NCBI RefSeq assembly: GCF_003334335.1
Contig: NZ_QOWQ01000151.1
DNA: 773 nucleotides
Reading direction: 5' to 3' (one strand)
Origin: Escherichia coli
GTDB taxonomy: Bacteria; Pseudomonadota; Gammaproteobacteria; Enterobacterales; Enterobacteriaceae
A program made the translations under genes and the position numbers. The notes under the pieces were generated by a model, which saw nothing but the letters and a program-made list of their open reading frames with translations, ran no database searches and was not told the DNA's origin. Shown one piece after another: positions 1 through 773 of this stretch (position 1 is the first letter of the stretch; every line of letters begins with the position of its first letter).

Positions 1-773
1 GCCAGCGGCAGGCCGCGATGGTCGCAGTGGTACAGGTGGATTTTTCGCGCCGGCGTGTACACCGGGTCCATCTGGTTTTGCATCTGCTCCACGGTCAGGC
101 CGCACGATGCCAGCCAGCGGCGGCTTTCCTCACTCACCCGGTCAGCCAGGATTTCACTTTCCAGCCGGTCGAGCATCTGCACCAGCACCGGCGGGAACAC
201 CACACTGCCACCGTCTTCGCCGCCGGACTGCTGAAGGGCATCCGCCAGGCTGCGGCGCTGCGTTTTCGCCAGCTCACCGGTGGCGGTTTCAACTCTGATG
301 AGTGGCGTGAAGCTCCCCGGCTGATAAATCGTCTGGATGCGGGTTCTGTCGTTCTGTATTGTGGTCAGCCGGTCGCCGTCCCAGCCGTACCAGGTCACTT
401 GCGGTTTCCGTGACAGCGACATCCAGCCCGTCAGGTCCCGTTCACGCCGCCACACCCGTTTTGCCACCCTGCGGCCCAGCGGGTCGTAAAGATAGCGACT
501 TTCGACCAGCGGCTCTTCATATTGTGTCCGCGTGTAGTGCACCAGCCGGTGCTGACTGTCGTAATGGTACCGGTGAGTCCGCTCATCATCCGTGCGGATA
601 ACCCCTTCCGGGATGAGGTCGGTTTTCTCTGTCAGCCTGCCGTGACGGTCATACCGGTAAAGATAGTGCGCGTCACGGGCGATACGGTTATCCGGCCACA
701 TGCTGAGGGTGCTGTCCGGGTGCAGCTCCGGGTCGGGCAGGCGGTTACCTGCCGGGTCTGTGGCATACGGGAT
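1..773 (-). CDS. rhs: Rhs-family core protein (YD-repeat polymorphic toxin shell), internal fragment, partial at both ends
   Basis: Seen in sequence: the minus-strand frame with codons starting at 773 is open for 257 codons to position 3, with no stop. The translation carries repeated YD-repeat motifs ([47 protein letters not shown]) and ends in [15 protein letters not shown]. Established knowledge: I recognise this from memory as the C-terminal part of the conserved core of E. coli-type Rhs proteins (RhsA/B/C/D family); no database search was run. The paralogue or strain cannot be assigned from this fragment, so the symbol is given at family level only. GC of about 63% matches the known compositional signature of Rhs cores. 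Confidence 0.9.
3..41 (-). other. Start of RHS repeat-associated core domain ([14 protein letters not shown]), truncated by the window edge
   Basis: Translated residues 245-257 resemble the conserved Y-x-x-D-H-L/R-G motif that opens the RHS repeat-associated core domain just upstream of the DPxGL boundary in Rhs and YD-repeat toxins. The domain continues past position 1. Confidence 0.65.
351..398 (-). other. YD-repeat motif (protein level), [16 protein letters not shown]
   Basis: Translated residues 126-141: [10 protein letters not shown], a YD-repeat variant with Trp in the aromatic positions. Confidence 0.6.
459..494 (-). other. YD-repeat motif (protein level), [12 protein letters not shown]
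   Basis: Translated residues 94-105: Y-L-Y-D-x-x-G-R-R, a close match to the YD-repeat consensus. Confidence 0.75.
528..575 (-). other. YD-repeat motif (protein level), [16 protein letters not shown]
   Basis: Translated residues 67-82 contain a Y-x-Y-D...R-L core typical of YD repeats. This copy is degenerate, with Gly replaced by His. Confidence 0.6.
624..659 (-). other. YD-repeat motif (protein level), [12 protein letters not shown]
   Basis: Translated residues 39-50 of the minus-strand frame match the YD-repeat consensus (aromatic-x-Y-D-x-x-G-R-L). Confidence 0.75.

Follow-up and report, generated by a model that had tools for sequence, protein, structure and literature searches.

The GC-rich core of an Escherichia coli Rhs element: a 773-nt internal coding segment, the compositional step beyond it and the exchangeable tips

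Based on sequence matches, we assign a 773-nt stretch of E. coli DNA, analysed here at its full length and referred to as the window, to the interior of the core ORF of an Rhs element of the RhsA/B/C subfamily, encoded on the minus strand. Both the base composition and the codon usage of the window are outside the host range. High GC characterises the entire 3.7-kb core and ends abruptly at the PxxxxDPxGL boundary. Taken jointly, a piece of an Rhs core within a composite element, in which a GC-rich core carries an AT-rich, exchangeable tip, is very probably the best explanation of these observations. The GC anomaly of the Rhs core has been known for some thirty years, and finding it here is correct and ordinary; Hill and colleagues reportedly described the combination of GC-rich core and AT-rich tip in Rhs elements as early as the 1990s.

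An internal piece of an Rhs core ORF

Frame 0 of the minus strand is open from one end of the window to the other, with 257 codons and 0 stops, and overruns both window ends (Table 1). The predicted product matches the NCBIfam equivalog NF041261 RHS_core ('RHS element core protein') over positions 913-1169 of 1261 with an E-value of 1.7e-166 and 556 bits, the whole-protein cut-off of 2000 bits being out of reach for a fragment of 257 aa. An earlier interpretation of the DNA by a model that saw the letters and an ORF list (the sequence-only reading) had already placed the window in an Rhs core, and the profile match bears this out. 'RHS element core protein' is also the annotation of full genes in which the window occurs unchanged. 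In five genomic contexts, comprising four 100% matches and K-12 rhsA, the window corresponds with equal numbering to residues 899-1155 of a 1247-residue core. YD peptide repeats are present: TIGR01643 YD_repeat_2x reaches 25.9 bits, versus a cut-off of 15.8, at product residues 61-83, and Pfam PF05593 RHS_repeat gives weak matches at residues 38-52 and 66-83. The match to PF03527 'RHS protein' is weak (model positions 1-13 of 38, i-E 0.016) because the domain is cut by the window end; in the full gene the RHS repeat-associated core domain runs past window position 1 up to the PxxxxDPxGL motif.

Table 1. Features of the 773-nt window and E. coli genes that contain it unchanged
Feature	Coordinates	Strand	Details
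Internal segment of Rhs core ORF (RhsA/B/C subfamily, assigned by sequence match)	3..773	-	257 codons; nt 1-2 form a partial codon
YD (RHS) repeat units	525..662	-	Product residues 38-83; TIGR01643 and weak PF05593
Stretch alignable to solved Rhs beta-cocoon structures	261..725	-	Product residues 17-171, sequence alignment
Start of 'RHS protein' / RHS repeat-associated core domain	3..41	-	Product residues 245-257; PF03527
100% matches			rhsA (UMNF18), rhsB (CPF6), rhsC (JMF1), 'RHS element core protein' (YY76-1; EH09-18-41; both at the rhsA locus)

What would such a protein look like? In sequence alignments the product matches Tse5 of P. aeruginosa (8cp6_B, E 8.6e-14, query 24-165) and the Rhs core of Salmonella bongori (8qjb/8qjc/8qjd, E 2e-8 to 5e-8, query 17-171), and the part of these solved cocoons to which residues 17-171 align is the C-terminal third. 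The likeness to T6SS Rhs effectors (Tse5, 8cp6; S. bongori, 8qjb-d; Photorhabdus Rhs1, PMC8636562) lies in the YD-repeat shell and in the succession of core, aspartyl-protease plug and toxin tip. In a published structure, the Rhs cage encapsulates the toxin and undergoes aspartyl autoproteolysis (PMC8636562). Carrying the cocoon and the autoproteolysis mechanism over from the homologues to this protein, we propose that the core would form a YD-repeat beta-cocoon enclosing a variable C-terminal toxin, that the toxin may be freed by aspartyl autoproteolysis at the PxxxxDPxGL boundary, and that a small immunity gene would follow downstream of the toxin tip. Sequence search found no counterpart in solved Rhs structures for product residues ~172-244 (window ~42-260, minus strand). 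On its N-terminal side are the last PDB-aligned YD repeats and on its C-terminal side the RHS-associated core domain; in GC content it does not differ from the remainder of the core. Enterobacterial homologues cover this stretch, and most Pseudomonas and Curvibacter matches end near residue 181.

Beyond internal coding sequence, the window contains nothing. It holds no promoter-like or terminator-like sites, no Chi sites, 0 direct repeats and two weak inverted repeats only. Rfam at a permissive E-value returned one chance-level match (b55, E 0.94, with 19.9 bits where the gathering score is 70), and PADLOC, run on the product and on the antisense ORF, gave no defence-system match. The antisense ORF starts with ATG and would encode 131 aa at 18-413 on the plus strand, opposite the Rhs frame; plus frame 2 is interrupted by one stop only across its 257 codons, which is the expectation for a frame facing a GC3-rich gene. 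We rejected the ORF at 18-413 as a gene, since it is without a family match and antisense to a GC3-rich gene. The likeliest reading is a shadow ORF of that gene, and the plus-strand ORFs of the window are not to be annotated. The safe label for the window is Rhs core coding sequence, minus strand.

Base composition and the step at the core boundary

With 245 C and 240 G, the window has 485 G+C in 773 nt, or 62.74%; the sequence-only reading had arrived at the same 485 (about 63%) by a hand count. GC is even along its length (57-66% in 100-nt windows). The host background was taken from E. coli K-12 MG1655, as six samples of 50 kb each (300 kb in all, 50.5% GC). Overlapping 773-nt windows of this sample (n=295,368) have a mean of 50.45% (sd 5.1), a 99.9th percentile of 59.9% and a maximum of 60.9%, and 0 of the 295,368 reach 62.7%. 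Codon positions tell the same way. In the window (minus strand, frame 0) GC1/GC2/GC3 are 66.5/45.5/75.9%, versus means of 58.6/41.2/56.8% in 164 long ORFs of the K-12 sample, among which the maximum GC3 is 69.8%. A comparison of GC and codon usage with the host, which the earlier reading had called for, thus came out as that reading anticipated. The flanks of the rhsA locus have 51.3% GC, and flanks in E. coli chromosomes with the exact window sequence 50-52%. The argument had been made on the supposition of an enterobacterial host, and the window is indeed 100% identical to chromosomal rhsA, rhsB and rhsC of E. coli.

With the minus strand as coding strand, the gene has its 3' end past window position 1, where a sharp fall in GC had been predicted. 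This fall is seen 274 nt on: the core ends there in five of the five contexts, with PxxxxDPxGL at residues 1238-1247, outside the window, and GC drops from 61.6-61.7% in the core (GC3 72%) to 37-41% in the C-terminal extension of 130-164 aa (GC3 26-31%). Measured in 200-nt windows, the rhsA context has 60-69% GC across most of the core, with one such window at 54.5%, and just beyond position 1 the values pass through 55.5, 44.5, 37.5 and 35.5%. On the other side, past position 773, high GC goes on for ~2.7 kb as far as the start codon. The 1 kb downstream of the extension has 34-39% GC in four of the five contexts; in the rhsC context it has 51%, because an orphan core fragment there raises the GC.

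The same pattern is on record: a conserved G+C-rich core and an A+T-rich core-extension of 130-177 aa were described by Jackson et al. 2009 (PMC2935791), so the statement about the literature in the earlier reading was accurate. The window is a member of the E. coli RhsA-B-C-F subfamily (clade I of that study) at 100% nucleotide identity, with no difference, and is like the subfamily in its GC-rich core and AT-rich extension, its PxxxxDPxGL boundary and its downstream immunity and orphan-tip genes. SMA1610 of Serratia marcescens, from clade II, has a like step, from a core of 67.7% to a tip of 46.4% G+C (PMC2935791, Fig. 4), and likewise a low-GC trough reaching downstream across orphan tips (PMC2935791). 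Unlike the window, SMA1610 belongs to the other clade and to a host of other base composition, and the E. coli step (61.6% to 37-41%) is relatively larger.

Across the five contexts, four different C-terminal extensions follow the same core window, two of them at the rhsA locus (K-12 versus EH09-18-41). Judged by sequence, the differing rhsA tips over an identical or near-identical core window would represent tip replacement in situ, and four extensions on the same core agree with the model of C-terminal displacement in Jackson et al. 2009 (PMC2935791). Variable toxin domains are set off by the PxxxxDPxGL motif, and in E. coli the C-terminal region of RhsA is neutralised by YibA, whose gene lies downstream (PMC3150448). 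The individual rhsA tips measure 162 aa after PVINVDPQGL in EH09-18-41 (L006 7238-11467) and 130 aa after PVTNTDPLGL in K-12 (L002 11334-15467).

Copies in E. coli and homologous cores in other taxa

By megablast the window is found in 3886 of 5426 complete E. coli genomes, at a median of 5 places per genome (1-10 copies). At least 99% identity to the window is reached by 2051 records, and 100% identity across all 773 nt by five; K-12 rhsA differs from it by one base (99.9%). Because identical copies sit in rhsA, rhsB and rhsC, the window is not assignable to a single locus or strain. Whole cores of 3741 nt differ by only 13-62 nt. Identity over 773 nt at three loci, together with near-equal cores, amounts to strong concerted evolution among Rhs copies. 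The UMNF18 rhsA (L001 11334-15468) is annotated as a frameshifted pseudogene, of 4135 nt versus 4134 in K-12, and its window part is intact.

Presence is patchy among strains, as the genome count indicates, and mobility genes are nearby, ISAs1-family transposase genes being located downstream of rhsB and rhsC. They occupy the distal end of the elements, at L003 5145-6281 for rhsB (yhhI) and at L004 3467-4605 for rhsC (ybfD/ybfQ pseudogenes), and we take them to be the H-rpt components of Rhs elements. Orphan Rhs fragments are located downstream of the main gene, at L001 9485-10441 and 8760-8978 and at L004 5397-6917, each with its own short GC peak; the peak at L001 10001-10400 rises to 54-62.5% inside a trough of 32-40%. 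These fragments match the 'dissociated tip' arrangement of Jackson et al. 2009 (PMC2935791).

Outside E. coli, a scan of contigs from a collection described as one genome per species returned 28 loci with Rhs core homologues, 17 of them usable. At these 17 loci the homologous core segment has 48-67% GC, with 16 at 56-67% and one, from Pseudomonas (L039), at 48%; core-segment GC shows no significant correlation with the GC of the flanks, which ranges from 48 to 69% (r = 0.20, p = 0.44). The tips are AT-rich at all loci examined. The nearest relatives outside E. coli come from Escherichia albertii, Pseudocitrobacter and Citrobacter, which are enterobacteria and whose flanks have about 50-58% GC, and among the 28 loci of this one scan there is no GC-rich donor lineage with a close homologue. 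In E. albertii the core ORF starts with MSGKPAARQGDMTQYGGSIV (L013 7307-7366). This start resembles what we take to be a PAAR-type N-terminus, and its sequence would suggest mounting on a T6SS spike.

Rhs core segments were also met on short contigs of MAGs labelled Collinsella, Bacillota, Candidatus Nanosynbacter, Lachnospiraceae and Oscillospiraceae (L015, L020, L024, L029 and L032). The segments on these five contigs are 73-100% identical to the E. coli protein, and the contigs are almost certainly mis-binned enterobacterial DNA. Although the query was from E. coli, no E. coli record is among the 28 loci. The representative chosen may account for this, or the pattern or deduplication behaviour of the scan.

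Origin of the GC richness and its implications

How might a core of such composition have come to reside in E. coli? We propose that the Rhs element would be a genetic composite, in which a GC-rich core is joined to an AT-rich exchangeable toxin tip with its immunity gene. The core would bear the compositional signature of a GC-richer ancestry and be off equilibrium with its host; tips would arrive separately via C-terminal displacement, and recombination between copies would keep the cores near-identical. We infer this composite, non-equilibrium origin with a confidence that is about evenly balanced between yes and no. The sequence-only reading had cited atypical composition as something that has been interpreted as a sign of horizontal origin: the atypical composition stands, and the origin itself is an interpretation for which the data give neither proof nor refutation. 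When polymorphisms among five E. coli cores are polarised against the orthologue from E. albertii, they comprise 45 S->W and 27 W->S changes. The S->W excess is marginal (binomial p = 0.044) and, for these five cores and one outgroup, implies an equilibrium of ~49% GC. It is consistent with an above-equilibrium composition that is decaying toward that of the host, and it speaks weakly against upkeep by GC-biased conversion. Since mutation in bacteria is AT-biased, any set of bacterial polymorphisms is also expected to contain more S->W than W->S changes.

The same observations bear on a different explanation, namely that high GC belongs to the Rhs family itself and is being kept up actively, either by GC-biased gene conversion during copy homogenisation or by selection acting on codons or on mRNA. 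The identical 773 nt in rhsA, rhsB and rhsC and the 13-62 differences in 3741 nt clearly attest to homogenisation of the copies, and core segments stay at 56-67% GC in 16 of 17 loci despite flanks of 48-69%. The missing correlation between core and flank GC could equally reflect a compositional set-point of the family. Moreover, the rhs family has been argued to be ancient in Enterobacteriaceae (Jackson et al. 2009, PMC2935791), yet its cores are without amelioration; a simple recent import that is not yet ameliorated is therefore less obvious. However, dominant GC-biased conversion predicts the opposite of the observed direction of change, S->W exceeding W->S, and of its low implied equilibrium. 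The Pseudomonas homologue at 48% GC argues against a universal set-point, and the sample is small (five cores, one outgroup, 17 loci). On balance we consider active maintenance of a family-intrinsic GC content unlikely. Its stricter form, a family-wide set-point at ~56-67% GC that is independent of the host and held by GC-biased gene conversion or selection, appears slightly more doubtful still.

Could the high GC instead, with no anomaly at the nucleotide level, be nothing but the amino-acid composition of a YD-repeat protein, rich in Arg, Gly, Pro and Asp? The 257-aa product is rich in these residues (R 31, D 21, P 17, G 15), and when the same 257 residues are written with the codon usage of the K-12 sample they already give 56.0% GC, versus 52.3% for K-12 background coding DNA. 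The observed coding GC is 62.6%. Amino-acid composition covers just ~3.7 of the 10.3 percentage points of excess, approximately one third, and GC-ending synonymous codons make up the other two thirds or so. Window GC3, versus 57.5% expected with host codon usage, is above that of all 164 long ORFs sampled. Individual codons illustrate the difference between the window and the K-12 sample: CGG accounts for 39% versus 10% of Arg codons, and the shares of GAC, GTG and ATC are 81% versus 39%, 79% versus 38% and 80% versus 42%, respectively. The GC-ending codons behind the excess (CGG, GAC, GTG and ATC) are seldom preferred by E. coli. Re-encoding with K-12 codon usage leads us to reject amino-acid composition as the sole cause, an explanation with very little probability left to it. 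That the window is compositionally ordinary in a host that itself has ~62-63% GC, the finding named beforehand as fatal to the anomaly, is more improbable again. Distant homologues with a core that matches their host in composition do exist in the GC-rich Pseudomonas and Curvibacter, but the exact window sequence sits in E. coli chromosomes, and these matches, the flank GC and the GC of the 300-kb K-12 sample, which place E. coli host DNA at about 50-51%, reject a GC-rich host.

What are the implications for the Rhs family? A GC-rich core with an AT-rich tip is a textbook case of a gene with composite base composition and has little import beyond correct annotation. The persistence of GC-rich cores in a reportedly ancient enterobacterial family poses a modest question. 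If a set-point of the family were true, Rhs cores would lend themselves naturally to testing gBGC in bacteria.
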